Shown: positions 14,520 to 64,000 of the stretch, piece by piece | How positions within the stretch are numbered: the stretch's first letter is position 1 | Layout of the letters: each line of letters opens with the position of its first letter | NCBI GenBank assembly: GCA_963849495.1 | Contig: CAWKHN010000022.1 | Span: forward strand, 37,576 to 101,575 | Origin: an uncultured Chloroflexia bacterium | GTDB taxonomy: Bacteria; Chloroflexota; Limnocylindria; Limnocylindrales; CSP1-4 | Direction of reading: 5' to 3' | DNA: 64,000 bases | Position numbers and translations under genes: made by a program | Notes under the pieces: model-generated | The model's input: the letters and a program-made list of their open reading frames with translations, nothing else | Told to the model about the DNA's origin: nothing | Database searches by the model: none

Positions 14520-14532
14520 TCGAGGAGGCCTG

Positions 14533-14931: not shown

Positions 14932-15081
14932 ACGACGCCGGCTTGACGGCCGATGCGTGCGTTGGCCGCTCCACTCGCTCGCTCGCTCACGCACCTTCAG
15001 GTGCGCTCGCTCTCGTGCTCGCAGCCGCCTTCGCCTGGGCCGCCATCCGGCGGCCTGGGGCGGGTCCGGTAGGCTTGTCCC

Positions 15082-16023: not shown

Positions 16024-16053
16024 CCGGGAGCAAGGGGTGGAGGCGACACGGAG

Positions 16054-17307: not shown

Positions 17308-17392
17308 TCAAGGCCCGCCGCGCCGGACGGATCCGCGGGCGCGGGCGCTCGCCGGCGGCTGCTGACCGGCCCCGGCCCGGTGCTACACTCGA

Positions 17393-24747: not shown

Positions 24748-24776
24748 GCGGGCCGACGGAGCGCTCGGACGCCGGC

Positions 24777-26883: not shown

Positions 26884-26956
26884 GCCCCGGCCGGCCAGCC
26901 GGGCGGGCGGACGCGCGGGCCGGGCGAGCGGTCCGGGCGCTGGTAGGATCGGACCG

Positions 26957-28567: not shown

Positions 28568-29589
28568 CCTCGCCGGGGTGGCTCGCCGAGATCCCGTCGC
28601 GGCAGCTGGTCGAAACCGGGCTCGAGACGCACCTGCCGCTGCTCCCGGGCGACCGCCCGCTGGTCGAGACCGGGACGGACGTCGTCCCCGGCGATCCCCT
28701 CCTCGAGCACATCCGGGATGCGCGGATCGACGAGGCGACGGTCCGCGTCACCGAGGGAGCGGCCTCGCACGTGGCCGGTGATCGCTGGTCCTCCGACGGC
28801 GCAATCGGACGGCGCGCCCGCAGGCGGGCGCGCGTCGAGGGGGAGCTGCTGGCACCGATCCCATCGCAGCGTGACCGCTGGCGGGTGGTCACCGGCGACC
28901 ACCGCGAGGAGGTGGCGTCGCCGGTCGGGGGCCGGGTGGTGGACGTGCGGCCCGGGGCCGAGGTGCGGATCCGTGTCTCCGGGTCGTCGCTGCGCGCCGC
29001 GTTCGCCGCCGGGTCTGCCGCGCGCGGGCGCCTTGCCCTCGCGACCGATCCGTTCGGCGAGCTGCGCCCCGGCGGCATCGACGTCGGCCGGGCCGGGAGC
29101 ATCCTGGTCGTGGGATCGCGGATCGATGCCGAGGCGCTCACGCGCGCCCGGGCGATGGGGGTGCGCGGCATCATCGTCGCATCGCTCCCGGGCAAGGAGC
29201 TGCGCGACTTCCTCGCGTCCGAGCGGCGCCAGCGGGCCGCCCTGCATGCGATGCCGCCGTTCGGGGTGCTGGTGCTCGAGGGCACGGTCCGCAGGTCGAT
29301 CCCGACCCCGGTCGTCGCCCTGCTCGAGCTCCTTGCCGGACGCGAGGTCGCCGTGCTGGTCGACCCACCAGCGCTCGTGTTCGACGAACCCGACCTGCCC
29401 CTGCCCGCGATCGACCCGGACTGGGTCTGGGTCCGGAGCGGACCCAACGCGGGTGCCGAGGGTCGCGTTCTCGGGTTGTCCGGACCGACCCGCTTTGCCT
29501 CCAACGTCGTGCTCGATGCCGCGCGCGTGCTCATCTCGGGCGAGACGCCGGTGGACGTCCCGCTGGGCGACCTCGAGCGGCTGGTCTGA
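28564..29589 (+). CDS. hypothetical protein (341 aa)
   Basis: ATGA overlap with the upstream ORF, giving likely start MTSPGWLAEIPSRQ. Sits between the ASKHA-like gene and tsaE. Confidence 0.45.
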   Translation: MTSPGWLAEIPSRQLVETGLETHLPLLPGDRPLVETGTDVVPGDPLLEHIRDARIDEATVRVTEGAASHVAGDRWSSDGAIGRRARRRARVEGELLAPIPSQRDRWRVVTGDHREEVASPVGGRVVDVRPGAEVRIRVSGSSLRAAFAAGSAARGRLALATDPFGELRPGGIDVGRAGSILVVGSRIDAEALTRARAMGVRGIIVASLPGKELRDFLASERRQRAALHAMPPFGVLVLEGTVRRSIPTPVVALLELLAGREVAVLVDPPALVFDEPDLPLPAIDPDWVWVRSGPNAGAEGRVLGLSGPTRFASNVVLDAARVLISGETPVDVPLGDLERLV

Positions 29590-29650
29590 GGCCTCGACGC
29601 CCGGTCGCCGGATCCGGCGCCGGGTCGGCGCTTCGGCTACCCTCGGTCCG

Positions 29651-30124
29651 ATGTCCGCCCCTGCCGTTCCCGAACGCGTGATCGCGACCCACGATGCCGC
29701 AGAGACGCGCGCCCTCGCGCGCCGCCTGGCGACGGTGGCCCGCGCCGGCGATCTCGTGGGGCTGATCGGTGATCTCGGGGCGGGGAAGACGCAGTTCGCC
29801 AAGGGCTTCGCCGCCGGCCTGGGGATCGAGGGCACCGTGAGCTCGCCGACCTTCGTGCTGATGGCCGAGTACGCCGGCCGGCTGCCGCTGTTCCACCTGG
29901 ACCTGTACCGGCTGGACGATGCCGAGGATGCGCTGGGTGGCGGCCTGCTCGACGAGCGCCAGCTGGCGGGCGTCGTGCTGGTCGAGTGGGCGGAGCGCCT
30001 GGGCGATGCCCTGCCCGCCGGCCGCCTCGACGTGCTGATCGACGGCACCGGCGACGACGAGCGGCGGATCACGCTGCGGGCGGGCGATCCCGAGTACGCG
30101 CGCTACCTGGAGGCCGCCGCGTGA
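29651..30124 (+). CDS. tsaE: tRNA t6A37 threonylcarbamoyladenosine biosynthesis protein TsaE
   Basis: Walker A GDLGAGKTQFAKG, 157 aa. Internal ATG of the longer track ORF. Confidence 0.85.
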   Translation: MSAPAVPERVIATHDAAETRALARRLATVARAGDLVGLIGDLGAGKTQFAKGFAAGLGIEGTVSSPTFVLMAEYAGRLPLFHLDLYRLDDAEDALGGGLLDERQLAGVVLVEWAERLGDALPAGRLDVLIDGTGDDERRITLRAGDPEYARYLEAAA

Positions 30125-30819
30125 CCGCGGGCGGACCGATCCTGGTCGTGGACACGGCGACGACGCGGGCGGTCATCGCGCTGGGCTCGCCCGGGGGCGC
30201 GCTGCTCGAGGGACGGAGCTGGGTTGCCGGCTACCGCCACGGTGAGGAGCTGCTGGCCGGGATCGAGGCCCTGCTGCGCGACCATCACCTGGCTCCCGGG
30301 GACCTGGGCGGCCTCATCGCCGGGACGGGCCCCGGCGCCTTCACCGGGCTGCGCGTCGGGCTGGCCACGATCAAGGGTCTCGGTCATGCGCTCGCCCTGC
30401 CGGTCGTCGGCATCGCCACCAGCGGGGCACTGATCGAGGCCGCCGCGGCGGCGACGGGAGACCGAGCCGCTGCCATGGTGCTGCTGCAGCCGGCCGGCCC
30501 GTCGGACCGGGTGGTGTCGCGGGCCGGTGTGCCGTCGCGGATCCTGCCCGGCGGCTCGGAGCAGGAGCTCGACGCCGGCAGCCTCCTGGTCGCCGTCGAC
30601 CTCGATGGGCGAGCGCCCGACGACGCCGTCGCCCGCGGCGACGCGGCCCGGGACGGGCTGGCGGCCGCGCTCCTCGCCGCGGGAGCCCCCCGGCTCGCGG
30701 CCGGCGACACCGACGACCTTGCGCGCCTCGTGCCCGAGTACGTGACGCTTCCCCGCGGCGTCCGCGCCGCGCCGCCCGACGGCGGGGTGGCGATGAGCGG
30801 CGGGACCCGGCGGCCATGA
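30121..30819 (+). CDS. tsaB: tRNA t6A37 biosynthesis protein TsaB
   Basis: GTGA overlap with tsaE. Inactive Kae1/YeaZ-like ILVVDTATTRAVIAL start. Confidence 0.8.
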   Translation: MTAGGPILVVDTATTRAVIALGSPGGALLEGRSWVAGYRHGEELLAGIEALLRDHHLAPGDLGGLIAGTGPGAFTGLRVGLATIKGLGHALALPVVGIATSGALIEAAAAATGDRAAAMVLLQPAGPSDRVVSRAGVPSRILPGGSEQELDAGSLLVAVDLDGRAPDDAVARGDAARDGLAAALLAAGAPRLAAGDTDDLARLVPEYVTLPRGVRAAPPDGGVAMSGGTRRP

Positions 30820-31418
30820 CCGCGACCCCCGTGCTCCGCATCCGGCCCATGGCGATCCCGGACCTCGCCGACGTCCAGCGCATCGAGCGCGCAAGCTTCA
30901 CGACGCCGTGGCCGCCGCAGGCATACCGCCAGGAGCTGGAGACGAACCGGCTGGCCCAGTACCTGGTGGCCCAGATCGGCGAGGAGATCGTCGCCTACGG
31001 CGGCATCTGGCTGATGGTGGACGAGGCGCACGTCACGACGTTCGCGGTTCACCCGCGCTACCGCCGGCGCCGGATCGGGGAGCGGCTGCTGCTCGCGCTC
31101 CTCGACCTGTCGCTCGATCGCCACGCGCACGAGGCCACGCTCGAGGTCCGGCTGTCCAACCTCGCCGCGCGGCGCCTGTACGAGAAGTATGGCTTCCGTC
31201 CCGTCGGGATCCGTCCGCGGTACTACACCGACAACGGGGAGGACGCGCTGATCATGACCACCGAGCCCCTCGCGGCGCCCGCGATGCGCGACCGCATCGC
31301 GAGGCTCCGGGCGGCGATCGACGCAGCTCCGCCGCCGGCGCGGGAGGCTGACGCCACGCTCGACGAGGCGATCGGCGGCCCGAACGACGTCGCCGCCGGC
31401 GCCGGGGGGCCTGCGTGA
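30816..31418 (+). CDS. rimI: ribosomal-protein-alanine N-acetyltransferase (GNAT) with C-terminal extension
   Basis: ATGA overlap with tsaB. GNAT motif VHPRYRRRRIGERLL. Position between tsaB and tsaD. Confidence 0.8.
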   Translation: MTATPVLRIRPMAIPDLADVQRIERASFTTPWPPQAYRQELETNRLAQYLVAQIGEEIVAYGGIWLMVDEAHVTTFAVHPRYRRRRIGERLLLALLDLSLDRHAHEATLEVRLSNLAARRLYEKYGFRPVGIRPRYYTDNGEDALIMTTEPLAAPAMRDRIARLRAAIDAAPPPAREADATLDEAIGGPNDVAAGAGGPA

Positions 31419-51031: not shown

Positions 51032-52804
51032 TTGCGAGAGCCAGGATCCGGCAGCGGAGCCGGACGAGCCCGAGGACCGGATCCCGTGCCGCCCGTGGTC
51101 CCGGCCAAGATCCGGGTGCCGTCGCCGGCGGCCTTGCCGCGCGAGCGCCTCGAGTCGCGGCTGCGCGAGGCGCTCCGGCGGCGCCTGACCCTTGTCGTCG
51201 CCCCGGCCGGCTCCGGCAAGACCACCCTTGTCGCGCGGCTCGCGGGTACCTGCGGCATGCCGGTGGGCTGGTACCGCGCCGAGACATGGGACGCGGACGA
51301 GCGATCCTTCATCCGGCACGTGGAGGCGGCACTCCTGGCCGCGGTTCCCGGGCTGCCCGCGGGCTGGGCCGGCGTGGAGGATGCCGCACGCAACCTGGAG
51401 ACCCGATTGGAATCGGGTCCCGTCCTGCTCGTCATCGACGACTTCCACACGCTCGAGGACACTGAGGCCGAATCCGCGTTCGGGCGGCTGGTCGACTACG
51501 CGCCACCATGGCTCGCGATCGTCGTCGCGTCGCGGGTGGTGCCCCGTGTGAACCTGACCAGGCTCCGGGTTGCCGGGGAGCTCCTGGAGCTCGGACCGGA
51601 CGACCTCCGGTTTCGGGCCTGGGAGGTCGAGGAGCTGTTCCGTGACATCTACCACGACCCGGTTCCGCCTGGCGACCTGGCCGTGCTGGCGAGGCGCACG
51701 GAGGGCTGGGCCGCCGGCCTCCAGCTGTACCACCTCGCGACCCGCGGCAAGTCGGTCGAGGAGCGCCGCCGGGTCCTGACCGGGGCTGGCTCGAGCGTCC
51801 GCCTGGTCCGCGAATACCTCGCGAGCAACGTGCTGTCCGGGCTCCCCGACGAGCTTCGGCGGTTCCTGCTCGACACCTGCGTGCTCGGCCGGTTGTCGGG
51901 CCGGCTGTGTGACGAGCTGCGCGGAGAGCACGGCAGCACGGCGATCCTCGAGGATCTTGCCCACCGCGGCGTGTTCACAGTTCCCGTGGAGGATGCGGAC
52001 GACGCATACCGGTACCACGAGGTGCTGCGTCAGCACCTGGACCGCATGCTCGTGGAGGAGGTCGGCGAGGCACGGGCCCGGGCACGCCATGCGGCCGCCG
52101 GCAGGCTGCTGGAGACCGACGGCGCGCTGTCCGAGGCTCTCCGCGCGTACTGTCGGGCCGAGGATTGGGACGCCCTGCGCCGCCTCCTCGGGATGCAGGG
52201 AGAGCGGCTGGCGGCCACCAGCGAGCGCGCCTGGGTGGACGTGGTGCCGCCGGCGATCGAGCGGCACGACCCGTGGGTGGCCCTGGCCGCGGCACGACGG
52301 GCACGGAACGCCGGGCGCTGGGCGGCGGCGCTGGACGCCTACGCGCGGGCTGCATCAGCGTTCGGGGCAGCGCCCGCGGCCGACATCGCGCGCCGGGAGC
52401 GGCGGGCCCTGGCGGGCTGGCTCGACCCGGCCGCGACACAACCGACGACCGCCGTCGGCCAGCTCCGCGGCGGACTGATCCGCGAGCCCGCGGCCGCGGC
52501 CCGCGACGCGTCGCGGCTGGACGACCGCGAGACCCCGGTCGTCCACGGTCTGCTGGCACTCGCGGCCGGCGACGTTCTCGCGGCCAGGCGCCAGCTCGAG
52601 TCGGCGGCCGACACCGGGGAGGCCGGTCCCATTGCGTGCGCAGCGGCACGTCTCGCGGCTGCGGTGGCCGGCGTGCTGGCCGGAGAGCCCGTGGACCCGC
52701 GGATCCGTCGACCGGGCCGTGGACGAGGCGGAGAGGGCGGGTGTGCCGTGGCTTGCGCGCCTGGCACGGGAGATCGGCGTTCGTCTCGGCGACGAGCCGG
52801 ATGA
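51032..52804 (+). CDS. STAND/AAA-type NTPase regulatory protein (N-terminal part of a probable frameshifted large regulator)
   Basis: Walker A LVVAPAGSGKTTLVARLAG and Walker B LLVIDDFHTLED, followed by a helical/TPR-like region. The frame closes at 52804 while a +1 frame carrying SARP-like sequence opens at 52632. Confidence 0.6.
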   Translation: MREPGSGSGAGRARGPDPVPPVVPAKIRVPSPAALPRERLESRLREALRRRLTLVVAPAGSGKTTLVARLAGTCGMPVGWYRAETWDADERSFIRHVEAALLAAVPGLPAGWAGVEDAARNLETRLESGPVLLVIDDFHTLEDTEAESAFGRLVDYAPPWLAIVVASRVVPRVNLTRLRVAGELLELGPDDLRFRAWEVEELFRDIYHDPVPPGDLAVLARRTEGWAAGLQLYHLATRGKSVEERRRVLTGAGSSVRLVREYLASNVLSGLPDELRRFLLDTCVLGRLSGRLCDELRGEHGSTAILEDLAHRGVFTVPVEDADDAYRYHEVLRQHLDRMLVEEVGEARARARHAAAGRLLETDGALSEALRAYCRAEDWDALRRLLGMQGERLAATSERAWVDVVPPAIERHDPWVALAAARRARNAGRWAAALDAYARAASAFGAAPAADIARRERRALAGWLDPAATQPTTAVGQLRGGLIREPAAAARDASRLDDRETPVVHGLLALAAGDVLAARRQLESAADTGEAGPIACAAARLAAAVAGVLAGEPVDPRIRRPGRGRGGEGGCAVACAPGTGDRRSSRRRAG

Positions 52805-53993
52805 CGCCGCCGACGGCGCCCGGCGAGCCTCCGCGCCGGGCCTCGCGGATGATGAGTGGGGCCCTGCCCTCCTGGCGCTCGCCGATGCCTGGACCGGTGG
52901 CGCCGATCCCGAGGACCGCCTGACCTCGGCCGAGATCGCCGCCGCCGCGTTCCGGCGCGTCGGCGCCGCCGTGCTCGAGGCGTGGTCCCGCGGCCTGGCC
53001 GCAATCGCCCTTGCCCAGTCGGGCGCACCCGATGCCCGGGACGTCGCGCTCTCGGTCGAGAGCCTGGGACGCGCGACGGGTACGCCGGCGGCGCGGCTGC
53101 TGGCCTATGCGGCCCTCGCGGGCATGGGCGAGGAGCGGAGCGAGGAGTTCGCCGTCCTGGCCGCATCCGTCGCCACGGAGACGGGGCTGGAGGTGCCGCA
53201 ATCCATGGCCGTGCCGCCGGATGACGTCGCGACGCGCCCCGGGCCGGCGGGGTCACAGGGCATCGTCCGTCTTCACACGTTCGGAGGATTCATTTTCGAG
53301 CTGGATGGACGGCGCGTGCCGCTCGATGGAGCAAAGCCGCGGGTTCGAGCGCTCCTCCGTCTGCTTGCCGTCAGGGGCGGTGCCCCGGTCCACCGTGAGG
53401 TGATCCAGGACGCGCTGTGGCCCGAGGCCGACGCGGCCGCAGGTGCCCGCAGCCTGCACGTCGCCGTGTCGGCTCTCCGGCGGCTGCTCGACGACGTTGC
53501 GCAGCCGGTCGGCGGAGGGCTGGTGGCCCGGCAGGGGGATGCCTATCGGCTTGACCTGTCCCCGGACGACGTTGACACCGGGCGGTTCGAGCGCGCGATC
53601 GCCGATGGCCGTGCGGCCCGGGCACGCGGAGAGAGTGCGTCGGCCGCGTTCGAGTCCGCGCTGGAGCTCTACGCCGGCGAGCTGCTGCCCGAGGACGGAC
53701 CAGCGGACTGGGTGATCGACGATCGGGAGCGATACAGGAACGAGGCACTGGAGGCGGCTCAGGCGATCGCCGAGAAGGCGCTGCTCGACGGCGACTTCTC
53801 AGTTGCCGTCCGCGCATGCCGGTTCGGCATCGGGCTCGACCGCTACCAGGACAGCCTGTGGCGCGTGCTCATCGAGGCGCGAGATCGCGCCGGGGACGCA
53901 GGGGCCGCGGCTCGTGACCGCCGGGACTATGCGCAGGTGCTCGAGGGCCTCGGCGTCACGATCCCGGACCAGTCTCCCGTCAGCCCGAACTGA
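52632..53993 (+). CDS. SARP-type (OmpR-family winged helix + BTAD) domain protein; probable C-terminal continuation of the upstream STAND ATPase
   Basis: HTFGGFIFELDGRRVPLDGAKPRVRALLRLLAVRGGAPVHREVIQDALWPEADAAAGARSLHVAVSALRRLL matches a trans_reg_C winged helix. ALELYAGELLPED...WRVLIEA is BTAD-like. Confidence 0.6.
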   Translation: MRAQRHVSRLRWPACWPESPWTRGSVDRAVDEAERAGVPWLARLAREIGVRLGDEPDDAADGARRASAPGLADDEWGPALLALADAWTGGADPEDRLTSAEIAAAAFRRVGAAVLEAWSRGLAAIALAQSGAPDARDVALSVESLGRATGTPAARLLAYAALAGMGEERSEEFAVLAASVATETGLEVPQSMAVPPDDVATRPGPAGSQGIVRLHTFGGFIFELDGRRVPLDGAKPRVRALLRLLAVRGGAPVHREVIQDALWPEADAAAGARSLHVAVSALRRLLDDVAQPVGGGLVARQGDAYRLDLSPDDVDTGRFERAIADGRAARARGESASAAFESALELYAGELLPEDGPADWVIDDRERYRNEALEAAQAIAEKALLDGDFSVAVRACRFGIGLDRYQDSLWRVLIEARDRAGDAGAAARDRRDYAQVLEGLGVTIPDQSPVSPN

Positions 53994-54371
53994 GATCGGG
54001 GGACAGCTGCCAGGCTGTTGCCGTCACACGTCCGACGTCGGCGGCGGTCACGGGATCGGAGATCCTGCGCTCGTCACGCCCAGGCAACCGCCACGCGATC
54101 GAAGCTCCCGCGTTCGGGGGCGCTGCTCGTGATCGCCAGGTTTCCCGCTCACGCACCTCGAGTGTCTACCCGAGCCAACTCTGTGTCGCGACCTCGGACG
54201 TCGGCGGAACGACGTCGGCTGCCTGAGGACGGCAGCAACGGGGTCGGTCGAGGTGACAGACCGTAATGACGCCGAGCCTGTCGGGACCCACGATCGTCGT
54301 GCACTGCAATTACAGCCCTGTCCGGCTGCGTGGATTGGCGTGGCCCGCTCCAGCTTAGAGGGTGGCGGCGA

Positions 54372-55946
54372 ATGAAATCTGCACTGATTCGCCGCTTCCC
54401 ACCCGCCGCCACGCGGAAGGTGTTGCCCCTCGCCGCGCTGCTGGCCTTCGTCGTGGTCAGCACGTCCGTGCGAGCGGCAGAGCAGGTGAACCTCGGAACG
54501 GCCACAGGCTTCGCGGTTCTGGCCGGCACCACCATCACGAACAACAATTCGACCACGATCACCGGTGACATCGGCGTGAGCGGCCCCGCCACCACCTCGA
54601 TAACGGATAACGGCACCTTGACGCTGAACGGCACCAGCTACTACGGCGAAACCGTCGCTGACACTGCCCAGGCCGACCTGCACGCCGCGTACGACGCGAC
54701 TGCCGCGCTCCCATCGACGTCCTCAATCGGTGGAGCCCTCGGTCCTCTCCAGACGCTTGGCCCAGGCGTCTACTCTTCGGACGCCGCCTTCAACCTGACG
54801 GGCACCCTGACTCTCGACGGCGAGGGCAACTCGGACGCCGTGTTCATCCTCCGGACAGGGGCCGCGCTCACCACCGCGGCATCCAGCGTTGTCTCGCTCG
54901 AGAACGGCGCAGATGCCTGCAACGTCTTCTGGGTGGTCAACGACGCGGCAACCCTTGGCGCATCGACGGTCTTCAAGGGGACCATCATGGCGGGGGCGGC
55001 GATCACGCTGGGCGCCGGAGCGAGGATCGATGGTCGTGCGCTGTCTCTCAGCGCCGCAGTCACCATGGACGCGAACACAATTGACGTCGGCACATGTGGG
55101 GCCCCGACCGCGATGCCGAGCCTCAGGCTCGCCAAGCACGTCATCAACGACAACGGCGGCACCGCCGTCGCGGGCGACTGGACCCTCTCTGCCGGCGCCT
55201 TCTCGGTGACCGGCTCGGAGGCGGCCCAGGAGGTCACCGACCAGGCCGGCACCTACGCCCTCTCCGAGACGTCGGTCCCGGGCTACGCCACCACCTCGAT
55301 CACCTGTGACGACGCCCCCGGCGTCGGGGTCACCTCGGTGACGATCGGGCCCGGTGAGACCACGACCTGCACGTTCGTCAACGACGACACCGCACCCGAT
55401 GCGACGCCCACACCGGCCCCGACGCCGACCCCGACACCGACCCCGACACCGACGCCGACCCCGACGCCGACCCCGACACCGACCCCGACACCGACGCCGA
55501 CCCCGACGCCGACCCCGACGCCGACCCCGACGCCGACCCCGACCCCGACGCCCACGCCCATCCCGACACCCACGCCCATCCCGACCCCTACCCTGACACC
55601 GACCCCGACGCCGACCCCGACGCCGACCCCGACGCCCACGCCCATCCCGACCCCTACCCTGACACCGACCCCGACGCCGACCCCGACGCCGACCCCTACC
55701 CTGACCCCGACCCCCACCCTGACCCCGGATCCGACCGTGGGTCCGACCGTGGATCCGACCCCTACTGGGTCGATCGAGGCTGGGGACATCGCCCTACCGC
55801 CCACGGACGTGACCGGTCCAGGTCCAGGCCCGGCCGGGGGCCAAACGTGGATTTCGTTCCTGCTCTTCCTGGCCCTGGCCTCATCCGCCCTGCTTGTATC
55901 CGCCCTGATACCTGGGCTGCCGAAGCGGCGGCGCGGACGACGGTGA
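54372..55946 (+). CDS. secreted DUF3494 (ice-binding-like) protein with prealbumin-like domain, (PT)n linker and C-terminal hydrophobic anchor
   Basis: Signal peptide MKSALIRRF...[17 protein letters not shown]3494/IBP-like beta-solenoid segment [38 protein letters not shown]...[41 protein letters not shown]. Then DWTLSAG...TTCTFVND, ~100 aa of TPTPTP, and a C-terminal [32 protein letters not shown]. An alternative start lies at 54330. Confidence 0.6.
55405..55730 (+). repeat. coding hexanucleotide tandem repeat (ACNCCN)n encoding (TP)n linker
   Basis: ccgacaccgaccccgacgccgacc units repeated >50 times. This produces spurious ORFs in the other frames and strand (55283..55987-, 55354..55596+). 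Confidence 0.85.
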
Positions 55947-55996
55947 GAAGCGCCGCGAGGCGGCTGTCGCCGGCCAGATGGTGGCAACCGGCAAGC

Positions 55997-57469
55997 TCAG
56001 CCCTTGCTGAAGAACTCCAGCTCGGACAACACGACCGGGGTGCCGGTCGGCCCGTTGGTGTCGACGACCTTGATCTGCACCGAGTCGACCTTTGAGGCCG
56101 ACAGGTCGAACGTCTGCGAATCGTGGACGTCCTCGAGGTTCAGCGTCGTTGAGGTGCCGTCGGAGAACGTGAGCTGCAGCGTCGCCGGACGGCGCATGTC
56201 GACGAACGAGTTTTCCGAGCCCGAGTGCACGATCACGGCCCCCAGGTCCACGGGTGTCTTGAACGTGATCGTGAGCGACGGCGTGGCGCCGTTGGCCTCC
56301 CAGTCCGTGTTGGTGTAGGTGTCGAATGCGAGCCGGCCCTCGTGGCCCTTGATCTCCTCGGAGGCAGTGACGGTCACTGGTCGCACCGGCTCGAGCGTCG
56401 GCGAGACGATCTTGCGGATGTTGTCGATGACGCCCGGAACGCCGCCGCCGATGGCCTCGTCGATGTACTTGTGGAACGAGGGGACGCCGATGTAGCCGAA
56501 GATGCCGACCGCAACGACGAGCCCGAGCCCGATCTGGAGGAGGCTTCGCAGCCGCAGGATCGACCGGATGCCCGAACGGGCCCCGGCTTTCATCGAGCCC
56601 CCGCGCTCCCCGGCGGCGAATGCCTTGGGCGGCTTCCGCTTGCGTCGGAAGATCCGGCGCCACCAGGGGAGGGTCTTCTCCGACACGACGGCCGCCGCCA
56701 CAAGGCTTTCACCGCAGCGCCGGCAGAACCGGCGCGCGGGATCGTTCGGCTCGGCGCAGGTGCCGCAGATGCGGTCACCGGGCTGGGCCACACGGGCCTC
56801 GACACCGGCGACGGGCCTGGGTCGAGCGGGAGATGCCTCGGTCGGCATCCGCGCGGCCGGCTGTTGCGAGACCGGTTCGCTGGGCATGCGCGGCGCAGGT
56901 TCGACCGGAGGCGCGGCAGCCGGGCCGGGGCGGGCCGGTGGGATGGCGCCGGGGCGGACGGGCGCCGGCTGGAGCGGGGGGGCCGGCTGCGAGGGCGCCG
57001 GCTGGGGCGCCGGTCCGACGGCAGGCGGCGGGACGATCCCACCGGTGCCGGCTGCCCCGAAGGTCACTGACGCTGCACGCGACGGACCCCCGTGGCGGGC
57101 GACCGGCGCGGGAGCTGGTTCCGGCTCGGGCTCGGGCTCAGGTTCCGGCTCTCGGTCGGGTTCGGGCGTGGGTTCCGGCTCGGGCTCGGGCTCAGGTTCC
57201 GGCTCTGGTTCGGGTTCGGGCGTGGGTTCCGGCACCGGTTCGGGTTCCCGCATCGGTTCGGGTTCCGGCACCGGTTCGGGTTCGAGGACGGTCTGGGGCT
57301 GCGGCTCGGGCTCAGGTTCCGGCTCGGGCTCCGGTTCTGGCTCCGGTTCGGGAACGGGCTCCGGCTCCGGTTCGGGCTCCGGCGCACGCGTGGGTTCCAC
57401 CACCGGCTCCGGTTCGGGAACGGGCTCCGGCTCCGGTTCGGGCTCCGGCGCACGCGTGGGTTCCACCAC
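55997..57469 (-). CDS. membrane protein: (PE)n disordered region, zinc ribbon, single TM helix, C-terminal discoidin-like (F5/8 type C-like) ectodomain
   Basis: N-terminal EPEPEP repeats and a Pro-rich segment. [19 protein letters not shown] zinc ribbon. TM helix [20 protein letters not shown]. The C-terminal ~170 aa ([16 protein letters not shown]...[12 protein letters not shown]...[10 protein letters not shown]...) has the hallmarks of a discoidin/carbohydrate-binding domain. Probably fused with the ORF 57528..57995. Confidence 0.55.
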
Positions 57470-57760
57470 CGGCTCCGGTTCGGGCTCGGGCTCAGGTTCC
57501 GGCTCTGGCTCGGGTTCGGGCGTGGGTTCACACCGGCTCCGGTTCGGGCTCGGGCTCAGGTTCCGGCTCAGGCTCAGGTTCCGGCTCAGGCTCAGGTTCC
57601 GGCTCAGGCTCAGGTTCCGGCTCAGGCTCAGGTTCCGGCTCAGGCGCGGGTTCGGGCTCCGGCTCGGGTTCGGGCTCCGGCTCCGGCTCAGGTTCGGGCT
57701 CCGGCTCAGGCTCAGGTTCCGGCTCAGGCGCGGGTTCGGGCTCCGGCTCCGGTTCTGGTT
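57115..57760 (-). repeat. coding hexanucleotide tandem repeat encoding (PE)n / (EP)n
   Basis: ggttccggctcgggctcaggttcc... units on the + strand (GSGS in + frames, PEPE on the minus frame) over ~650 bp. This spawns multiple spurious ORFs (57092..57985+, 56502..58031+, 57064..57531-). Confidence 0.85.
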
Positions 57761-57995
57761 CGATCACCACGACGCGGTCCGCGGGAGACCAGCCACCTCT
57801 CGACAGGCCGGTGGGGGTCGCGGGCGGTGCCGGTTTGGCGGGGGCCGTCGGCGTCGGGGCGTCCGTCCCGGGGGCCTCGGTGCCCTGGTCAGCCTCCTTC
57901 TGGCCGACCCATTCGAGGAACTGGCCGCAGTTCCCGCAGAACGCGTCCGTCGCCTCGTTCCGGTGGCCGCAGTTCCCGCAGATGATCACGCACAC
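57528..57995 (-). CDS. double zinc-ribbon N-terminal module followed by (PE)n repeats; probably the N-terminus of the 55997..57469 gene separated by a frameshift inside the repeat
   Basis: [29 protein letters not shown] is two CxxC pairs. The ORF ends inside the PE repeat. The next ORF starts 59 nt later in a different frame, with the same repeat and orientation. Confidence 0.5.
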
Positions 57996-58062
57996 ACTCC
58001 CCGAGGTCCTCGCCGGTGGGGCAGAGGATAGTCGGGCGCCGCCGCTCGCGGGAGCCCGCCCG

Positions 58063-58620
58063 TCACGCCTTCGCCGCCGTGCCCTTCACGATCTCGATCC
58101 GGTGCAGGACATGAGCCGGCTTGGCCGCCGCCACGAGCGCGTCGAGCCGCTGCGTGTCGACGGCCCGCGGGTCGGGCACCGTCACCCGGACCACGACCAG
58201 GGGCTCCGGCGAGCCGGGCAGCTCGCCTCCCGGGTCCACCGACCAGCCGGTCGCGCCATTCTCGACGATCTCGACGTGGCCGCCGGTCTGGATCTCCACC
58301 TGGCCCGCAAGACCAACCGCCGTGCCCCGCATCCGGTACAGCTCGACCGCACGGGCCACGATGGCTCGCCGCCGGTCCTCGTCCCAGCCCTCGTCCAGGG
58401 CGATCCCCACCCAGCCGGCCAGCCAGGACAGGAAGTCCTCTGGAGCCAGCCATGGGTCGAGGTAGGCGTCGAAGTTGTCCAGCGTGCTGAACACCGGTGC
58501 CAGCACCTCGTCGAGGCCCGACAGGAACCGCTGGGCGAAGTCGTCGTCCTGGTACAGCGCGGGCAGCGATGGTCCCAGCGGATGCGGTGACCGGAGCCCG
58601 GCGATGGTGCCGCGCATCAC
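58063..58620 (-). CDS. phage tail protein I-like baseplate protein (eCIS Afp12/Cis12-like, TIGR02242-type)
   Basis: [82 protein letters not shown] matches the P2 gpI / 'phage tail protein domain' family. ATGA overlap with the upstream baseplate J gene. Confidence 0.8.
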
Positions 58621-60563
58621 GCCCCCTCGACCAGCACCTGGTGCTCGTAGCTGAAGACGAGCGCGTGCGTCTCGAGCTCGAGGCGCTGGGTCTGCTGGCC
58701 GCGCTGCCCGGTCACCGGGTCGGCCCCGAACAGGCGGGCGTCCTCCACCACCTCCGTGCCGCGCAGGGCCTGGAGAACCGAGTAGACCTCGCCCACGCTG
58801 ATCGGCCGGCCGAACGGCCAGCCGGTCCCGTCCGGGCCTCCGGTGATCGGGTGGAAGTACTCGTACAGGGCGGCGAGCGCCTCCTCCTGGAGCCGCGTCG
58901 GGTTGACGCGCGGCCTCGCCTTGAGCTTGGCCACGATCGTGATGCCGCGGTAGACGGGCGGCTCGACGATGGCGCGGGTTCCGATCACGCGGCTCTCGTC
59001 CAGCCGGTCGGTGATCTTCTGGAGGGCGTCCGGGCTGGGAACGAGCTGCTCGAACCGCAGGCGGCCCTGCTCGGCGATGGCGGACGGCACGATCAGCACC
59101 CGGACCGAGCCCGCGTCGGCACCGTCACCGGCGGCGACCGCGCGCACGCGGGCGACATCGGGAGCGGCGTCGCGGGCCAGCTGCTCGTAGTCCTCGGTGG
59201 TCACCGCGCGGCCACGGGCGCGCAGCCGGATCGGCCCCCGGATCTTGGCGTTCTCGATGTCCTCACCGTCCACGCCGCCCCGCGCCGGCCGCCGGTTCTC
59301 GACGCGCGACACGAACGGGATCGAAGACTTGAGGACGCTGATCGACCGCGGGGCCACGTTGCCGCGGCGGCCGCCACCGGTGCGGTACTCCCGAAGCCGG
59401 AGGTGGGCACCCTTGGCCGGCACCGCCCCGTAGCGCCGCAGCACGCCGTCGGCTTGCCGGACCGCCGGTCCGAGGCGCACCTCACCCGCCGACAGGTCGA
59501 GCACGAAGTGGTTGTCGTCCGGGCCGCTGCCCGCGAAGTCGGCGACGTGGGTCCACTCGTCCCAGCCCTCACCGCCGGTGACCTCGAGGACCGGCGTGCC
59601 GTCGCCGGGCACGACGGGGCCACGCTTGAGGGGGAAGCGCTGGCCGGACACGCCGTCGGAGATGCCGACCTCCTCCTCGTGGACGAGATCCGCGTTCACC
59701 GCGTCGACCGTGCCGCCGATCGTGATCGCGGTGAGGCCCGTGATGTTCGGGGACCCGCTGTACGCGGGCTGGCCCTCGGACAGCTCCGTGACGCGAGCCC
59801 GGAGCCAGCCGGCCCGCTGCTTCGAGATGAGCGATGCGACGTGGCCCTTCGGGACGTGGACCACGACGTCGCCGTCCCGGTTGAGGCCGCCGGTCGAGTC
59901 CGCGTCCAGCTCGCATGGCTCCCACTCGTCGCCCGTCCAGGCCTCCCAGGCAAGCGGCGGGTTCGTCGGGTCCACGCCGACCCCGTCGATGTCCGCCTTG
60001 AACCGGAGCCGGACGGCGTTCGACGGGACCGCCTCGGACAGCCCGATGTACAGCGCGTCGCCGGGTTGGGGAACCTGCTGGAAGCAGAACACCTCGGTGC
60101 CCTTCTCGAGGGCGCTGCCATGATCGCGAAGCGTCTTGCCGTCGATCATCGAGCCGATCCGTGCCAGCGAGCTCGGCACGATCGGCAGGTCCTCGATGGT
60201 CGCGAACGCGATCGCCTCGTCCGTGTCGGTGCGGATCGTGGCCACCTGGGTGCCGGCCGCGATCGTGACCACGTCCGGCTGAGGCCCCGAGAGCCAGAAC
60301 GTGACGGCGGTCCGCGCGGCGGTGGGCGGATAGAGGCTGACGCCGATCAGCTCCAGGAACTTCACGTAGTTGCGGTCCGGCACGCGGTTGAGGCGGTACA
60401 CCACCTGGTCGGTCATCCAGGCAAACAGCTCGATGAGCGTCACGCCCGGGTCGGAGACGTTGTGGTCGGTCCATTCCGGGCAGCGCTGCTGGACGAGCCG
60501 CTTGGCATCGTCCACGAGGTCCTGGAAGCGGCGGTCGTCGAGGTTGGGAACCGGCAGGGCCAT
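58617..60563 (-). CDS. baseplate J-like assembly protein (eCIS Afp11/Cis11-like)
   Basis: 648 aa. MALPVPNLDDRRFQDLVDDAKRLVQQRCPEWTDHNVSDPGVTLIELFAWMTDQVVYRLNRVPDRNYVKFLELIGV is the conserved N-terminus of the 'putative baseplate assembly protein' (gpJ/gp6-like) family. Overlaps the gp25 gene stop. Confidence 0.85.
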   Translation of the reverse strand: MALPVPNLDDRRFQDLVDDAKRLVQQRCPEWTDHNVSDPGVTLIELFAWMTDQVVYRLNRVPDRNYVKFLELIGVSLYPPTAARTAVTFWLSGPQPDVVTIAAGTQVATIRTDTDEAIAFATIEDLPIVPSSLARIGSMIDGKTLRDHGSALEKGTEVFCFQQVPQPGDALYIGLSEAVPSNAVRLRFKADIDGVGVDPTNPPLAWEAWTGDEWEPCELDADSTGGLNRDGDVVVHVPKGHVASLISKQRAGWLRARVTELSEGQPAYSGSPNITGLTAITIGGTVDAVNADLVHEEEVGISDGVSGQRFPLKRGPVVPGDGTPVLEVTGGEGWDEWTHVADFAGSGPDDNHFVLDLSAGEVRLGPAVRQADGVLRRYGAVPAKGAHLRLREYRTGGGRRGNVAPRSISVLKSSIPFVSRVENRRPARGGVDGEDIENAKIRGPIRLRARGRAVTTEDYEQLARDAAPDVARVRAVAAGDGADAGSVRVLIVPSAIAEQGRLRFEQLVPSPDALQKITDRLDESRVIGTRAIVEPPVYRGITIVAKLKARPRVNPTRLQEEALAALYEYFHPITGGPDGTGWPFGRPISVGEVYSVLQALRGTEVVEDARLFGADPVTGQRGQQTQRLELETHALVFSYEHQVLVEGA

Positions 60564-60565
60564 GA

Positions 60566-60964
60566 TCAGTCTCCTCCCGGGATCACGTAGAACGGGAACA
60601 CCAGGTTGCGGCGGTCGTTCGTCCGCCGGATCGCGTACCGGATGTCGATGTACATGACGGTGGGGTCCTTCGCGTCGAAGCTCACGACGACGTCCTCGAC
60701 CTCGATCCGGGGCTCCCAGCGGCGCAGCGCCGCCTTGACCTCTGCCGCGATCGCCGATGCCGTCGTCCCGTCGGCGGATGCGAAGACGTAGTCGTGGATC
60801 CGGCAGCCGAAGTCGGGACGCATCGGGCGCTCGCCCGGCGCGGTGCCGAGGATCAGGCGGATCGCCTCCTCGATCTCGCGCTCGCGCGAGACCAGCGCGA
60901 TGCCGCCGGTCGCGTCGGTTCGCAGCGGGAACGCCCAGCCGCGTCCGATGAACTCGTCGCTCAC
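60566..60964 (-). CDS. GPW/gp25 baseplate wedge protein (eCIS Afp9/Cis9-like)
   Basis: 132 aa. GRGWAFPLRTDATGGIALVSREREIEEAIRLILGTAPGERPMRPDFGCRIHDYVF...RWEPRIEV is a textbook gp25/GPW lysozyme-like fold signature. Confidence 0.88.
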   Translation of the reverse strand: MSDEFIGRGWAFPLRTDATGGIALVSREREIEEAIRLILGTAPGERPMRPDFGCRIHDYVFASADGTTASAIAAEVKAALRRWEPRIEVEDVVVSFDAKDPTVMYIDIRYAIRRTNDRRNLVFPFYVIPGGD

Positions 60965-60974
60965 GCCGGCCTCC

Positions 60975-61364
60975 TCACGCCACGCTCACGTCGGTGACCG
61001 TCGCCAGCGGCTGGCCCGGCACCTGGGCGCACATCGCGACCTGCGAGCTGGTGGTCGCGATCGGCTTGCCGCCGGCCGTCACCGTGGGGCTGCCGCTGAG
61101 CACCCTCCCCTGCTCGGTCGTCGGCACCATGAACGGGTCCGCCGGGTGGAGGCCCACGTGCGGCGGCGTGTTGAAACCGGACGAGCCCACGACGGCGACG
61201 GCCTTGCCGCCGATGGTCACCGTCGCCTCCAGGCCCTGGAGCAGCGGAGCGGAGAAGGGGAGCGGGGCGGGCGAGGGCTGCGGCGCCCCCGTTGCCGGGT
61301 TGGGCACCTGGTGGATCGTGCACTGGCCCTGGATCTTGTCGCCCATGACGAGGGGTTGTGCCAT
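60975..61364 (-). CDS. PAAR-like spike tip protein (eCIS Afp10/Cis10-like)
   Basis: Only the C-terminal 129 aa of track ORF 60975..62456 (from MAQPLVMGDKIQGQC). Gly/Val-rich beta-prism-like sequence with Cys/His (CTIHQV, HVGLHPADP, AMCAQ). Lies between vgrG and gp25, so the PAAR call rests on position and composition. ATG verified at 61362-61364. Confidence 0.65.
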   Translation of the reverse strand: MAQPLVMGDKIQGQCTIHQVPNPATGAPQPSPAPLPFSAPLLQGLEATVTIGGKAVAVVGSSGFNTPPHVGLHPADPFMVPTTEQGRVLSGSPTVTAGGKPIATTSSQVAMCAQVPGQPLATVTDVSVA

Positions 61365-61375
61365 CTCCTGCTCGT

Positions 61376-63073
61376 TCAGTTCAGCGCGACCGTGGCGCCC
61401 TTGATGGCCGTCTGGCCGGACGCCTTGATCTCGACGCTGGAGGCGTCGACCTTGAAGCTGCCCTGCGTCTTGACCTCCACGTCGCCCGTGCCTTCGAGCA
61501 GCAGCTTGCCGTCGAAGTAGACGTGGACCTGTCCCTTGGTCTCGTTGAGCGAGATCCGGAACTTGTTGTCCGCCGAGATCAGGGCGATCCCGGACTCGCC
61601 CGGGTCGTCGAAGAACACCAGCTTGTGGCCGCCGCGCGACACGAACCCGGAGCGCTTGACGGTGCCCGCGTCGAACAGGCCGTCGCCCAGGGGGGCCGTG
61701 TCCTTGCCGTTCCACAGGCCGCCGATGACGATCGGGTGGGAGATGTCTCCCTGCTCGAAGGCGACCAGCACCTCGTCGCCGACCTGCGGCACCCAGACCA
61801 TCCCGTATTCCTTGCCTGCCCCGGGCTGGGACAGGCGGGCCCAGGACGACTCGGCGTCGTCGGACAGCCACGGGAAACGGAGCTTCACCCGGCCCATCGA
61901 CTGGGGGTCGTCGTTGTCGGTCACGATCCCGGGGACGACGCCCGGGATCCGGTTGCCGCCCCCGCCTCCGCTCCCGCCCGAGCCCTGGGCGAGGAGCCCG
62001 TGGATGGAGCGATCCTGGCGGCCGGTGAACTCCAGGAACGTGCGATAGGCGCCGGCCCCGAACTCGTGGCGGGAGCCCGTGATGACCCACTTCCCGGCCA
62101 GTGCGGGATCGACGCCGCTGATGCTCACCGCGACGCCCGCCTTGAGGGCCGGGGAGCCGACGGCCACGGCTGTCGCCTCGAAGGCGGCGCTGCCCACCTG
62201 CTGGCTCCGGGCCGTGGCGAGATCGTCCGCCGTTCCCTGTGACCCCACGGGGTGATCCACGACGGTGAGCGTCTGCCCGCCCACCTTGCCGGCGAGGTCC
62301 GCGGGGCTGACCGAGAGCTGGGCGTTGGCTGCGGTCACGGTTGCCTGGCCGACGATGGCCTCCTTGGCATGCGGGTCCCAACCCCGCACCTTGACGTCTG
62401 CCACCTGCGACACCGCGCTGATCCGGGCGCGGAACTCGAGCAGGTTGTGGCCCCACACGAGCTGGACGGGGTTTTCGGTGTCGAGATCGCCCGCACCCGG
62501 AGCGCCGGAGGACTCGACCGGCTTCTTGAACAGCAGCGTCTCGTCGTCGACACGGCAGTCGAACCCGATCCGGCGAGCGACCCCGTACAGGAACTCCAGG
62601 TCCGACTGGTTCGCCTGGATGACATGCTCGACGGTGCTGCCGGAATCGTCGACGTCCGCACCCAGGCCGGCGTCGCCGGCGATCCGGGACGCGATGTCGG
62701 AGTACTTCACGTTCTGGTAGGTGGTGGTCTTCCGGCCGGCCGCCAGCCGGTGGGACTTGTCGTAGCCGCGGACCACGGCCCGCGTGCCGAGCGAGTCATA
62801 GTCGGCTTCGATCGAGGTGACCTCACCCGTGATGAGCGGCTCCGGGCTGTCGCCGGTGAGCGCCGTCGTCGAGATCCGGACCTTCCTGCCGACCTCGAGG
62901 CCGGCCCGTCCGAGGATGTCGCGCTCCGGGTCCCGGAACACGAGCGTGAACATGTCGGGCATCGCGAGGCGATCCACCACGAGCGCGCTCTCCAGCTGGT
63001 GCTCGACGTCGGGCGCGAGCTCGGCGCCCTCGACCTCGACGATCCGCTGGGTGGAGGCGGTGGAGGTGGCCAT
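61376..63073 (-). CDS. VgrG / phage late control D - gp5-like spike protein (eCIS Afp8/Cis8-like)
   Basis: 565 aa. N-terminal gpD-like domain. Central GIVTDNDDPQSMGRVKLRFPWLSDDAESSWARLSQPGAGKEYGMVWVPQVGDEVLVAFEQGDISHPIVIGGLWNGKD (Phage_base_V/OB-fold signature). C-terminal beta-helix-like GQVHVYFDGK...VEIKASGQ. Confidence 0.88.
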   Translation of the reverse strand: MATSTASTQRIVEVEGAELAPDVEHQLESALVVDRLAMPDMFTLVFRDPERDILGRAGLEVGRKVRISTTALTGDSPEPLITGEVTSIEADYDSLGTRAVVRGYDKSHRLAAGRKTTTYQNVKYSDIASRIAGDAGLGADVDDSGSTVEHVIQANQSDLEFLYGVARRIGFDCRVDDETLLFKKPVESSGAPGAGDLDTENPVQLVWGHNLLEFRARISAVSQVADVKVRGWDPHAKEAIVGQATVTAANAQLSVSPADLAGKVGGQTLTVVDHPVGSQGTADDLATARSQQVGSAAFEATAVAVGSPALKAGVAVSISGVDPALAGKWVITGSRHEFGAGAYRTFLEFTGRQDRSIHGLLAQGSGGSGGGGGNRIPGVVPGIVTDNDDPQSMGRVKLRFPWLSDDAESSWARLSQPGAGKEYGMVWVPQVGDEVLVAFEQGDISHPIVIGGLWNGKDTAPLGDGLFDAGTVKRSGFVSRGGHKLVFFDDPGESGIALISADNKFRISLNETKGQVHVYFDGKLLLEGTGDVEVKTQGSFKVDASSVEIKASGQTAIKGATVALN

Positions 63074-63082
63074 GCCGGGACC

Positions 63083-63832
63083 TCAGGCGTTCCGCGCCGC
63101 GTCGGCGAGGCTCGGGATCAGCAGCACGGTGCCGGCCGGCAGCCGCATCGGGTCGTCGATTCCGTTGAGCGCCGCGATCGCCCGCCAGTACGCCGGCTTG
63201 CCGAGCTCGCTGTGGGCGACGGACTGGAGGGTGTCGCCCTCGATCATGGTGTGGACGCGCCGGCTGTTGGCTGCGTGCGAGGTCGGGTTCTGGCTGCCGA
63301 TCTGCTCCTGCTGGCCCTCGATCGTGATGTCGACCTTGGCCTGGACCGGCGTGCCGTCCTTGCGGAACACGGTGTAGTTGACGACGACGCTCTTGAGGTA
63401 GCCGCTGAAATCGTCCAACTGGGGGTTGCCGCCCCACTTGAACGAGACCGCGGGCGGGCACGGCTTCTTCCTGTCCCGCGAGGCCGCCGTCGGCCGCGTC
63501 CACGAGAGCAAGGTCGTGATCTTGGGGGTGACGTTGCCCTCCCCTGAAGCGAAGTCGTCGAAGAACAGCTGGGTCGTGAGCGTCATCGCGTTGGTGCCGC
63601 TGAACTCCGGCGTGCCGCCATCCGTGGCGGGGGTCCGGTTGCGGGTCACGTTGAGGGTCTGGGTCAGGCGGTACTCGGTCGGGTTGAACATGCACTCGAT
63701 CTCGGTCACACCCGAGGGCAGGTTGCTCCCGACGCAGACGATCCTGGCCCTGTCGACGTGTTGACCCGCACGCTGGGTCAGGTCGCCCGCACCGATCGTT
63801 CCGGTGTCCGATTGGAGTGATTGCAGCACCAT
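63083..63832 (-). CDS. tail tube-initiator-like protein with C-terminal LysM domain (eCIS Afp7/Cis7-like)
   Basis: N-terminal T4 gp19/tube-like segment (EIECMFNPTEYRL). C-terminal LysM (HTMIEGDTLQSVAHSELGKPAYWRAIAALNGIDDPMRLPAGTVLLIP). Confidence 0.75.
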   Translation of the reverse strand: MVLQSLQSDTGTIGAGDLTQRAGQHVDRARIVCVGSNLPSGVTEIECMFNPTEYRLTQTLNVTRNRTPATDGGTPEFSGTNAMTLTTQLFFDDFASGEGNVTPKITTLLSWTRPTAASRDRKKPCPPAVSFKWGGNPQLDDFSGYLKSVVVNYTVFRKDGTPVQAKVDITIEGQQEQIGSQNPTSHAANSRRVHTMIEGDTLQSVAHSELGKPAYWRAIAALNGIDDPMRLPAGTVLLIPSLADAARNA

Positions 63833-63907
63833 CGCGCCGGCCTCAGACGGACCCGTCCGGCGACGGGCCGCCGGTCGGGGTGTCGGTCCGCGATCCGCCG
63901 CGGGCGC

Positions 63908-64000
63908 TCATCCGGCGATCTCCTGGTACGCGATCTCGAGCGACTCGGTGGCCACGCTGTTGCTCATCACGTCGAGGCTGGGGCCGGTCCACTTGACCGG
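63908..64000 (-). CDS. 3' end of an upstream minus-strand gene (truncated by window edge); possibly a further CIS component
   Basis: The open frame ends ...PVKWTGPSLDVMSNSVATESLEIAYQEIAG, with its stop at ~63908-63910. Identity cannot be assigned from 30 aa. Confidence 0.3.
   Translation of the reverse strand, partial: PVKWTGPSLDVMSNSVATESLEIAYQEIAG

Follow-up and report, generated by a model that had tools for sequence, protein, structure and literature searches.

A probable Streptomyces-type contractile injection system with a CisA-like membrane protein in a Limnocylindria-type soil Chloroflexota bacterium

Introduction

The structure of a Streptomyces contractile injection system (CIS), a member of class IId, has been solved (PMC12237407), and the Protein Data Bank (PDB) models 9GTP-9GTS cover SCO4243-4248, SCO4252-4253 and SCO4260 (Casu et al. 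2025, PMC12237407). Cytoplasmic particles, firing in the producer cell and stress-induced cell death are known for Streptomyces (PMC10066040, PMC12237407). Here we analyze a related locus at one end of a 64,000-nucleotide stretch of contig CAWKHN010000022.1 (the window). Six genes at this end very probably form the spike-baseplate module of a class IId CIS in the chromosome of a Limnocylindria-type soil Chloroflexota bacterium, and the gene that follows them encodes a homologue of CisA (Sco4242), the firing factor of the Streptomyces system.

Class IId systems are found outside Streptomyces. CISs of this class from other Chloroflexota were imaged in 2026 (PMC12998442), and all imaged class IId systems, from Streptomyces, Roseiflexus and Deinococcota, are cytoplasmic (PMC10066040, PMC12998442). 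A preliminary description of the window, made from its letters, had supposed that the CIS of this lineage, if actinobacterial, would be essentially uncharacterised. This was too strong, given the solved Streptomyces class IId structure (PMC12237407) and the imaged Chloroflexota systems (PMC12998442). Cis10 is missing in S. coelicolor and present in S. venezuelae (PMC10066040). Cargo of the Sle1/Sle2 type has also been described (PMC13277306). A literature search for Limnocylindria together with contractile injection found no paper.

S. coelicolor needs CisA for contraction and for cell death, and the protein is not in the purified particle (PMC12237407). It is a bitopic membrane protein that is also not in the solved particle, and its cytoplasmic part is predicted to contact Cis11 (PMC12237407). 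Sco4242/CisA has a low-complexity cytoplasmic N-terminus and a Cys-rich, putatively Zn-binding segment that abuts a single transmembrane (TM) helix. The C-terminal domain is conserved, spans about 150 residues and is carbohydrate-related; the gene lies directly after the baseplate genes (PMC10020575, PMC12237407). The word 'zinc' appears in neither paper, and the descriptions are of a Cys-rich TM-adjacent region or an 'unstructured' N-terminus (PMC10020575, PMC12237407). According to Vladimirov et al., Sco4242 homologues occur in actinomycetes only (PMC10020575), and Gaisin et al. noted that close homologues of cisA are missing in Roseiflexus (PMC12998442).

Results

The minus strand of the window from 58063 to 63832 carries six tightly packed genes. 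The window has a GC content of about 70%, and a third-position GC (GC3) above 0.85 sets real genes apart; the GC3 of the six genes is 0.87-0.94. All Pfam assignments of the six proteins exceed the curated cut-offs. The genes are listed below in the direction of the minus strand, preceded by the partial gene at the window edge (aa, amino acids; L048 and L006 are related loci described below).

63910..64000, minus strand: second tube or tube-initiator gene (cis1b/Afp5-like), 3' end only (last 30 codons), alignable to the Phage_T4_gp19 gene in both L048 and L006
63083..63832, minus strand: Cis7/Afp7-like tube initiator with a C-terminal LysM, 249 aa (CIS_tube 2.7e-24, LysM 1.3e-4)
61376..63073, minus strand: Cis8/Afp8 VgrG-like spike, 565 aa (Phage_base_V 1.8e-30, Phage_GPD 1.2e-9)
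60975..61364, minus strand: Cis10 PAAR-like spike tip, 129 aa (PAAR_motif 2.4e-8, 34.5 bits with a cut-off of 27)
60566..60964, minus strand: Cis9/Afp9 gp25-like sheath initiator, 132 aa (GPW_gp25 2e-28)
58617..60563, minus strand: Cis11/Afp11 baseplate-J wedge protein, 648 aa (Baseplate_J 2.1e-18)
58063..58620, minus strand: Cis12/Afp12 P2 gpI-like wedge protein, 185 aa (Tail_P2_I 1.1e-15)

The gene order is 7-8-10-9-11-12, and from the coordinates the spacing consists of gaps of 9, 11, 10 and 2 bp and one 4-bp overlap. The preliminary description had proposed a CIS spike-baseplate module of six minus-strand genes, with gaps of 12 bp or less or 4-bp overlaps, an order of 7-8-10-9, a VgrG motif GRVKLRFPWL...VGDEVLV and a cluster that runs into the window edge. 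All of this agrees with our analysis. The motif lies in Cis8 (61376-63073), and the hidden Markov model searches recovered gp25, VgrG and baseplate J. The partial gene at 63910-64000, whose translation ends in ...SLEIAYQEIAG*, has its remainder beyond the window. The six genes are kept in 40+ loci of other genomes, and this conservation places them far beyond chance.

The PAAR gene (60975-61364) is the 3' portion of a long open reading frame (ORF), 60975..62456, and has the same position in most Chloroflexota loci. We did not accept another ORF, 60961-61323, as the PAAR gene, since it is a shadow frame and the match to PAAR_motif falls in 60975-61364. An Rfam scan of the whole window found no RNA family, and a scan for promoters and terminators in 53900-58200 found nothing above shuffled expectation.

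The best PDB match of five of the six proteins is the S. coelicolor CIS (CIS-Sc), represented by 9GTP/9GTR. Cis11 aligns end to end with S. coelicolor Cis11 (9gtp_1K; residues 1-647 with 1-649, E=1e-236, 791 bits). Cis8 matches S. coelicolor Cis8 (9gtr_q) at 4.2e-86, Cis9 matches 9gtp_V at 2.2e-50, and the sole match of Cis12 is 9gtp_E (2.2e-47). Cis7 has its best sequence match in 9gtp_P (1.5e-34), followed by AlgoCIS, tCIS, Pvc7 and Afp7. A PDB sequence search with the PAAR protein (Cis10) gave no match. The matches to AlgoCIS, cyanobacterial tCIS, PVC and AFP are many orders of magnitude weaker than those to CIS-Sc; for example, in the PDB ranking of the window Cis8, Afp8 stands at 2e-11 and CIS-Sc Cis8 at 4e-86. 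The preliminary description had placed the module in the core of both Afp/PVC-type and Streptomyces CISs. The Streptomyces (class IId) half of that placement probably stands, and the Afp/PVC half does not, as the PDB matches of that type are far weaker.

A rough neighbour-joining tree of Cis11, made from the fetched loci without dbeCIS reference clades, places two Chloroflexota groups together, nested among Actinomycetota. The tree is only indicative, and it fits the idea of Gaisin et al. 2026 that transfer between phyla has taken place.

The rest of the cluster can be read from L048, the CIS region of a 1.9-Mb metagenomic contig (ENA ERZ25039483 contig_28154) that was reached via SecY and Cis7 homologues, after searches for exact copies of the window Cis7, Cis8, Cis9 and Cis11 had given no match. 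The ribosomal-protein region of this contig is 98% identical to window 1-18760, and L048 has 95.4% nucleotide identity over window 57264-64000. Window position 64000 corresponds to L048 position 9833, within a 139-aa Phage_T4_gp19 gene (9506-9925); the L006 homologue of this second tube gene (tube2) matches Phage_T4_gp19 at 3.7e-24. Upstream of tube2, L048 has a 653-aa protein with no Pfam match, a 52-aa DUF6760 protein, a 144-aa protein, a tube protein of 144 aa and a sheath protein of 503 aa. Divergent genes encode a Pvc16_N cap, a WHD+AAA ATPase and an eCIS_core-domain protein, and the ATPase and Pvc16_N are also present in L006. In the other direction, L048 continues with the six genes and then a 614-aa CisA-like ORF. 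The cluster is complete on this near-identical contig. The sheath, tube, ATPase and cap genes had been expected beyond 64000; tube2, tube, sheath, cap and ATPase all lie within 8 kb upstream in the 95.4% identical L048, which is not the window's own continuation.

The same organization is widespread. A Cis7 scan of species-representative genomes gave 46 loci, and in a tblastn matrix the same layout appears in about 25 Chloroflexota loci. More distant Actinomycetota loci (Streptomycetaceae, Yinghuangia, Parafrankia and Actinomadura) have a like layout. There are 704 Cis7 homologues at E<=1e-30, and hundreds of close relatives occur in soil metagenomes. We assign the system to the Streptomyces type (class IId) because of its gene order, its two tube paralogues, the divergent cis15 and cis16, the lack of an Afp13 fibre and the presence of Cis10, as in S. 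venezuelae. By analogy with the imaged members of the class, it is probably a cytoplasmic CIS.

Two further genes of L048 deserve mention. The 144-aa protein encoded at L048 6939-7373, between the tube gene and DUF6760, has its counterpart beyond window 64000. With 61-82% identity between Chloroflexota and Actinomycetota it is, like the sheath and gp25, among the best conserved of the cluster, yet it belongs to no Pfam family and matches no sequence in the PDB. Beyond the eCIS_core gene, L048 1-782 (minus strand) encodes an fn3-repeat/CW_binding_2 cell-wall-binding protein (714 aa up to the point where the locus ends and truncates it), which flanks the far side of the L048 CIS cluster.

A gap of 67 bp separates cis12 from the next gene of the same strand.

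55997..57995, minus strand: CisA/Sco4242-like membrane adaptor, called from Pfam (Zn_Ribbon_1/DZR and a weak NADase_transloc F5/8 type C match), homology and fold

The product begins with a C4 Zn ribbon, followed by a linker of about 390 aa (60% Glu+Pro), a second Zn ribbon, a basic PWWRR motif, one TM helix and a domain of about 150 residues. The gene reads as two frames that switch at about 57530. The repeat unit at this point reads ccggtgtgaaccc and the next copy reads ccggtggtggaaccc; two bases short, the unit leads into a stop. L048 has the orthologue as one uninterrupted ORF of 614 aa, and most relatives likewise have a single ORF. We considered and rejected two small genes (57528-57995 and 55997-57469) in its place because of the two-base loss in the repeat unit and the single ORF of the orthologue in L048 and most loci.

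Several comparisons connect this protein with its positional orthologues in Streptomycetaceae. In tblastn, the C-terminal 266 residues of the window protein match the positional orthologue of the Streptomycetaceae locus L033 at 8.8e-21. In HHalign, profiles of the Chloroflexota and Actinomycetota (including Streptomycetaceae) positional orthologues align with a probability of 100% and E=3.3e-45 over 236 columns, and the aligned region spans the second ribbon, the PWWRR motif, the TM helix and the C-terminal domain. The two phyla have kept both Zn ribbons. Downstream of the second ribbon the protein is near constant in length (224-262 residues), and the length of the linker that joins the ribbons varies overall from 109 to 692 residues, with 109-309 aa in the Actinomycetota loci and about 390 aa in the window. 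The N-terminal C4 zinc ribbon, C-x2-CG-x9-FC-x2-CG-x-[FY]LEW, is kept from Streptomycetaceae to Chloroflexota.

For the last 266 aa, AlphaFold2 gave a model with a mean predicted local distance difference test (pLDDT) score of 85.5 and values above 90 in the C-terminal domain. Foldseek relates this domain to galactose-binding CBM32, F5/8 type C and APC10/DOC folds (E of about 1e-8, target TM-score up to 0.77). Judging from these sequence comparisons, the product of 55997-57995 is a CisA/Sco4242 homologue. The preliminary description had stated that the downstream genes are not the Afp13-16 set, and rightly so: cis15 and cis16 lie upstream and are divergent, there is no tail fibre gene, and the downstream gene is the one for the CisA/Sco4242-like protein.

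On the other side of the CisA-like gene, a regulator gene is convergent to the cluster.

51032..53993, plus strand: STAND/AAA ATPase regulator with a C-terminal SARP DNA-binding module (Pfam AAA_22/AAA_16 in 51032-52804; Trans_reg_C and BTAD in 52632-53993)

The regulator reads as two overlapping frames with a switch at about 52700. L006 has it in a single ORF of at least 969 aa, and in L048 the split falls at another point. Its placement on the opposite strand beside the CisA-like gene is kept in Chloroflexota and in several Actinomycetota loci. The presence of two frame changes in 7 kb of the window suggests indel errors of long-read assembly; they may also be real, in which case both the CisA-like gene and the regulator would be inactivated.

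Between the CisA-like gene and the regulator, window 54001-55995 is a 2-kb insertion relative to L048. It holds one gene.

54330-55946, plus strand: secreted protein, 538 aa, with Ice_binding (4.5e-49), a SpaA-like prealbumin fold, a (TP)n tract of about 130 residues and a C-terminal TM anchor

The same insertion is found in the same place in L004 and L010 and is missing in L006 and L048. The gene is probably unrelated to the CIS.

The remainder of the window is a housekeeping region, as the preliminary description had it. Its genes include those for ribosomal proteins L2 to L15, SecY, S4, RpoA, a class II aminoacyl-tRNA synthetase, TsaB/TsaD, RimI and KsgA. Others encode OTCase, CdaA, GlmM, GlmS, ACPS, IspE, GlmU, polyprenyl synthase, pyruvate phosphate dikinase, oxidoreductases, CorC, RecO and an M19 dipeptidase. 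A Pfam scan of the approximately 47 other ORFs of the window found no capsid, terminase, portal, integrase or lysis protein. No phage head, packaging or integration gene was found in the 10 kb upstream in L006 and L048. These results bear out the earlier view that the region has no integrase, terminase, capsid or portal gene and is not a prophage. The GC content of the CIS region is 0.70-0.73, equal to that of the flanks, with no break in composition. The highest GC in the window (0.75-0.76) is at 23600-31300, where the ORFs 23860-24693 (minus strand), 26837-28567 (plus strand) and 28519-29589 (plus strand) belong to no Pfam family.

The preliminary description had suggested a deep-branching actinobacterial host. 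This did not hold, as SecY and the ribosomal region match soil Chloroflexota metagenome-assembled genomes (MAGs) and the CIS is closest to those of the Limnocylindria type. The 1.9-Mb contig encodes a protein that matches the window SecY with 100% identity, and the SecY proteins on Chloroflexota MAG contigs that bear related CIS loci match it with 88-90% identity. Such contigs include JBFMAT010000005 'Chloroflexota bacterium' (L001), OY970218 (L006), CAVUFD010000001 (L023) and JAICUI010000004 (L025), and several relatives are labelled Candidatus Limnocylindrales (Chloroflexota, class Limnocylindria). The window Cis7 is 61-87% identical to homologues of the main Chloroflexota group and 34-45% identical to those of Actinomycetota. 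By these sequence matches the host is a high-GC soil Chloroflexota bacterium of the Limnocylindria type: the phylum follows from the SecY and ribosomal matches, the Limnocylindrales labels and the low Cis7 identity to Actinomycetota. We rejected an actinobacterial host, as Cis7 identities and SecY favour the Chloroflexota MAGs.

A 5.7-kb contig binned as 'uncultured Kineosporiaceae' (L027, CAYYCE010000206.1) is 96.4% identical to window 57661-63402. It is probably mis-binned, because all other close relatives are Chloroflexota.

Discussion

The gene set suggests how the particle could be built and used. We assign the parts by homology to the solved S. coelicolor particle. A Cis8 trimer capped by the PAAR protein Cis10 forms the spike, and Cis7 with the second tube protein (3' end at 63910-64000) joins this threefold structure to the sixfold tube. 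Cis9 (gp25) initiates the sheath, Cis11 and Cis12 make up the six wedges, and the tape-measure-like protein could be cargo that is loaded into the particle. The CisA homologue takes the fibre position as a single-pass membrane protein, with the zinc ribbons and the acidic EP linker in the cytoplasm and the carbohydrate-binding-like domain facing outward. By analogy with Streptomyces, particles may assemble free in the cytoplasm, envelope stress may lead CisA to recruit them to the cell's own membrane, and they would then fire and kill the producer cell. Cytoplasmic localization, CisA-dependent firing and a function in cell death are expected for this system by the same analogy.

Several points weigh against parts of this interpretation. 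The sheath, tube, cap and ATPase genes lie outside the window, and their presence is read from a different record, a contig that is 95-98% identical. The class IId membership rests on the PDB ranking and on a crude neighbour-joining Cis11 tree of the fetched loci, without dbeCIS clades. CisA orthology rests on the Streptomycetaceae positional orthologues and on published descriptions, not on an alignment with SCO4242. If the frame change in the CisA-like gene is real, the strain would resemble a cisA mutant, unable to fire.

The main rival to a cytoplasmic class IId system is a canonical extracellular CIS (eCIS) of the Afp/PVC type that is released by lysis, binds other cells and injects a toxin. 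The membrane protein encoded downstream would then be unrelated to the CIS or would serve as a receptor-binding 'fibre' of the particle. The core gene set is common with eCISs, L048 has an eCIS_core-domain protein and a tape-measure-like possible cargo, and Vladimirov et al. detected Sco4242 in purified particles and named it a putative fibre (PMC10020575). However, no Afp13-like fibre gene lies between cis12 and the end of the operon, and the fibre position is held by a CisA homologue with a strongly basic stretch ahead of its TM helix. In addition, the systems of class IId that have been imaged are all cytoplasmic (PMC10066040, PMC12998442), and the matches to Afp and Pvc proteins fall many orders of magnitude below those to CIS-Sc. 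The missing fibre, the CisA-like membrane topology and the behaviour of the imaged class IId systems thus disfavour a released particle, which we consider unlikely. A quite different possibility is a membrane-anchored system, similar to a type VI secretion system (T6SS), with which a monoderm cell fires outward into its neighbours. In that case CisA would anchor the machine in the membrane, with the tape-measure-like protein as the delivered effector. Firing in Streptomyces does need a membrane protein (PMC12237407), Sle1-type tape-measure-like cargo is translocated to membranes (PMC13277306), and the external CBM32-like domain, as modelled, could sense or bind the cell wall. Nevertheless, the Pfam matches of the L048 and L006 clusters include a single sheath of the Phage_sheath_1 type and no TssB/C-type split sheath, TssJLM, TssK or ClpV. 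The literature describes Streptomyces particles as free-floating and rarely at the membrane, and there is no evidence of interbacterial delivery for class IId. We regard outward firing of this kind as very unlikely.

We also considered a defective myovirus prophage that has kept its tail module, or an R-type tailocin. All six families are common with contractile phage tails (gp25, gpJ, gpI, gpD/gp5 and a gp19-like tube), but a phage origin of this sort fits poorly with the surroundings of the genes. No capsid, portal, terminase, integrase, lysis or tail-fibre gene occurs in the 58 kb on the window side or in 10 kb in L048/L006. The hallmarks of a CIS are found (the Pvc16_N cap, the WHD+AAA ATPase, eCIS_core and CIS_tube-LysM), the cluster occupies the same chromosomal site beside the same regulator in many MAGs, and its GC of 0.70-0.73 continues that of the flanks. 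A prophage remnant or tailocin is therefore extremely improbable.

Apart from the CisA-like gene, the locus is a textbook CIS cluster of a known family, and the CisA homologue in Chloroflexota is its one modestly new element. We tentatively propose, as a possibility that we do not hold to be the probable one, that CisA-dependent self-directed firing takes place in widespread uncultured soil Limnocylindria, with CisA as a membrane 'leash' that carries the N-terminal zinc ribbon on an acidic EP spacer of 200-700 residues. The N-terminal ribbon, not the juxtamembrane Cys-rich region proposed earlier, may then capture the Cis11/Cis12 wedges in place of tail fibres, and the external CBM32-like domain may read cell-wall damage. 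Limnocylindria are not known to be filamentous, and CisA-dependent firing may not be a speciality of actinomycetes. If this proposal is true, class IId CISs would serve monoderm soil bacteria generally as an altruistic-death or abortive device, and the differences in linker length found in nature would offer a direct way to study how contraction is set off by docking. More generally, the locus extends the Streptomyces-type (class IId) CIS and its putative firing factor CisA to an abundant uncultured lineage of soil Chloroflexota. The paired zinc ribbons and the highly variable EP linker are concrete targets for work on the membrane docking of fibre-less CISs.

The closest counterpart among known systems is CIS-Sc of S. 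coelicolor (sco4242-sco4260/4263; PDB 9GTP/9GTR/9GTS). The two clusters have the same gene order, cis7-cis8-(cis10)-cis9-cis11-cis12-cisA, with cis16 and cis15 upstream and divergent, two tube paralogues and no Afp13 fibre. In both, a CisA/Sco4242-type protein and a regulator flank the cluster. In contrast to CIS-Sc, the host here belongs to Chloroflexota and not to Actinomycetota, the PAAR protein Cis10 is present, as it is in S. venezuelae, and the regulator joins a STAND ATPase to a SARP module at the C-terminus. Genes for TM effectors of the Sco4256-4258 type were not recognised in the L048 gene list, although no search was aimed at them. The CisA-like protein resembles Sco4242/CisA in its position after cis12, its low-complexity cytoplasmic N-terminus, its Cys-rich Zn-binding segment before the TM helix and its external carbohydrate-binding-like domain of about 150 aa. 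Compared with the published descriptions, it has a very large (EP)n expansion and an extra N-terminal Zn ribbon, which the Streptomycetaceae loci L031 and L033 have as well.

The Roseiflexus/Chloroflexota/Deinococcota clade of Gaisin et al. (ISME J 2026, PMC12998442) has in common with this locus hosts in the phylum Chloroflexota, a gene order syntenic with that of Streptomyces, a cytoplasmic action as proposed and, by our assignment, class IId. The hosts of that clade are thermophiles or extremophiles, whereas the MAGs here are of soil, fen and freshwater type. In addition, Roseiflexus is reported to have no close cisA homologues (PMC12998442), whereas the present lineage has a clear one. Afp, PVC, AlgoCIS and the cyanobacterial tCIS (class I eCISs and relatives) have in common with the locus the Afp7, 8, 9, 11 (and 12) core families and a PAAR tip. 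These systems own tail fibres (Afp13) and a tape measure (Afp14), and their afp15 and afp16 lie downstream of the baseplate genes. In contrast, the Limnocylindria-type locus has no fibre, a CisA-like protein stands in the fibre position, and cis15 and cis16 are upstream and divergent.

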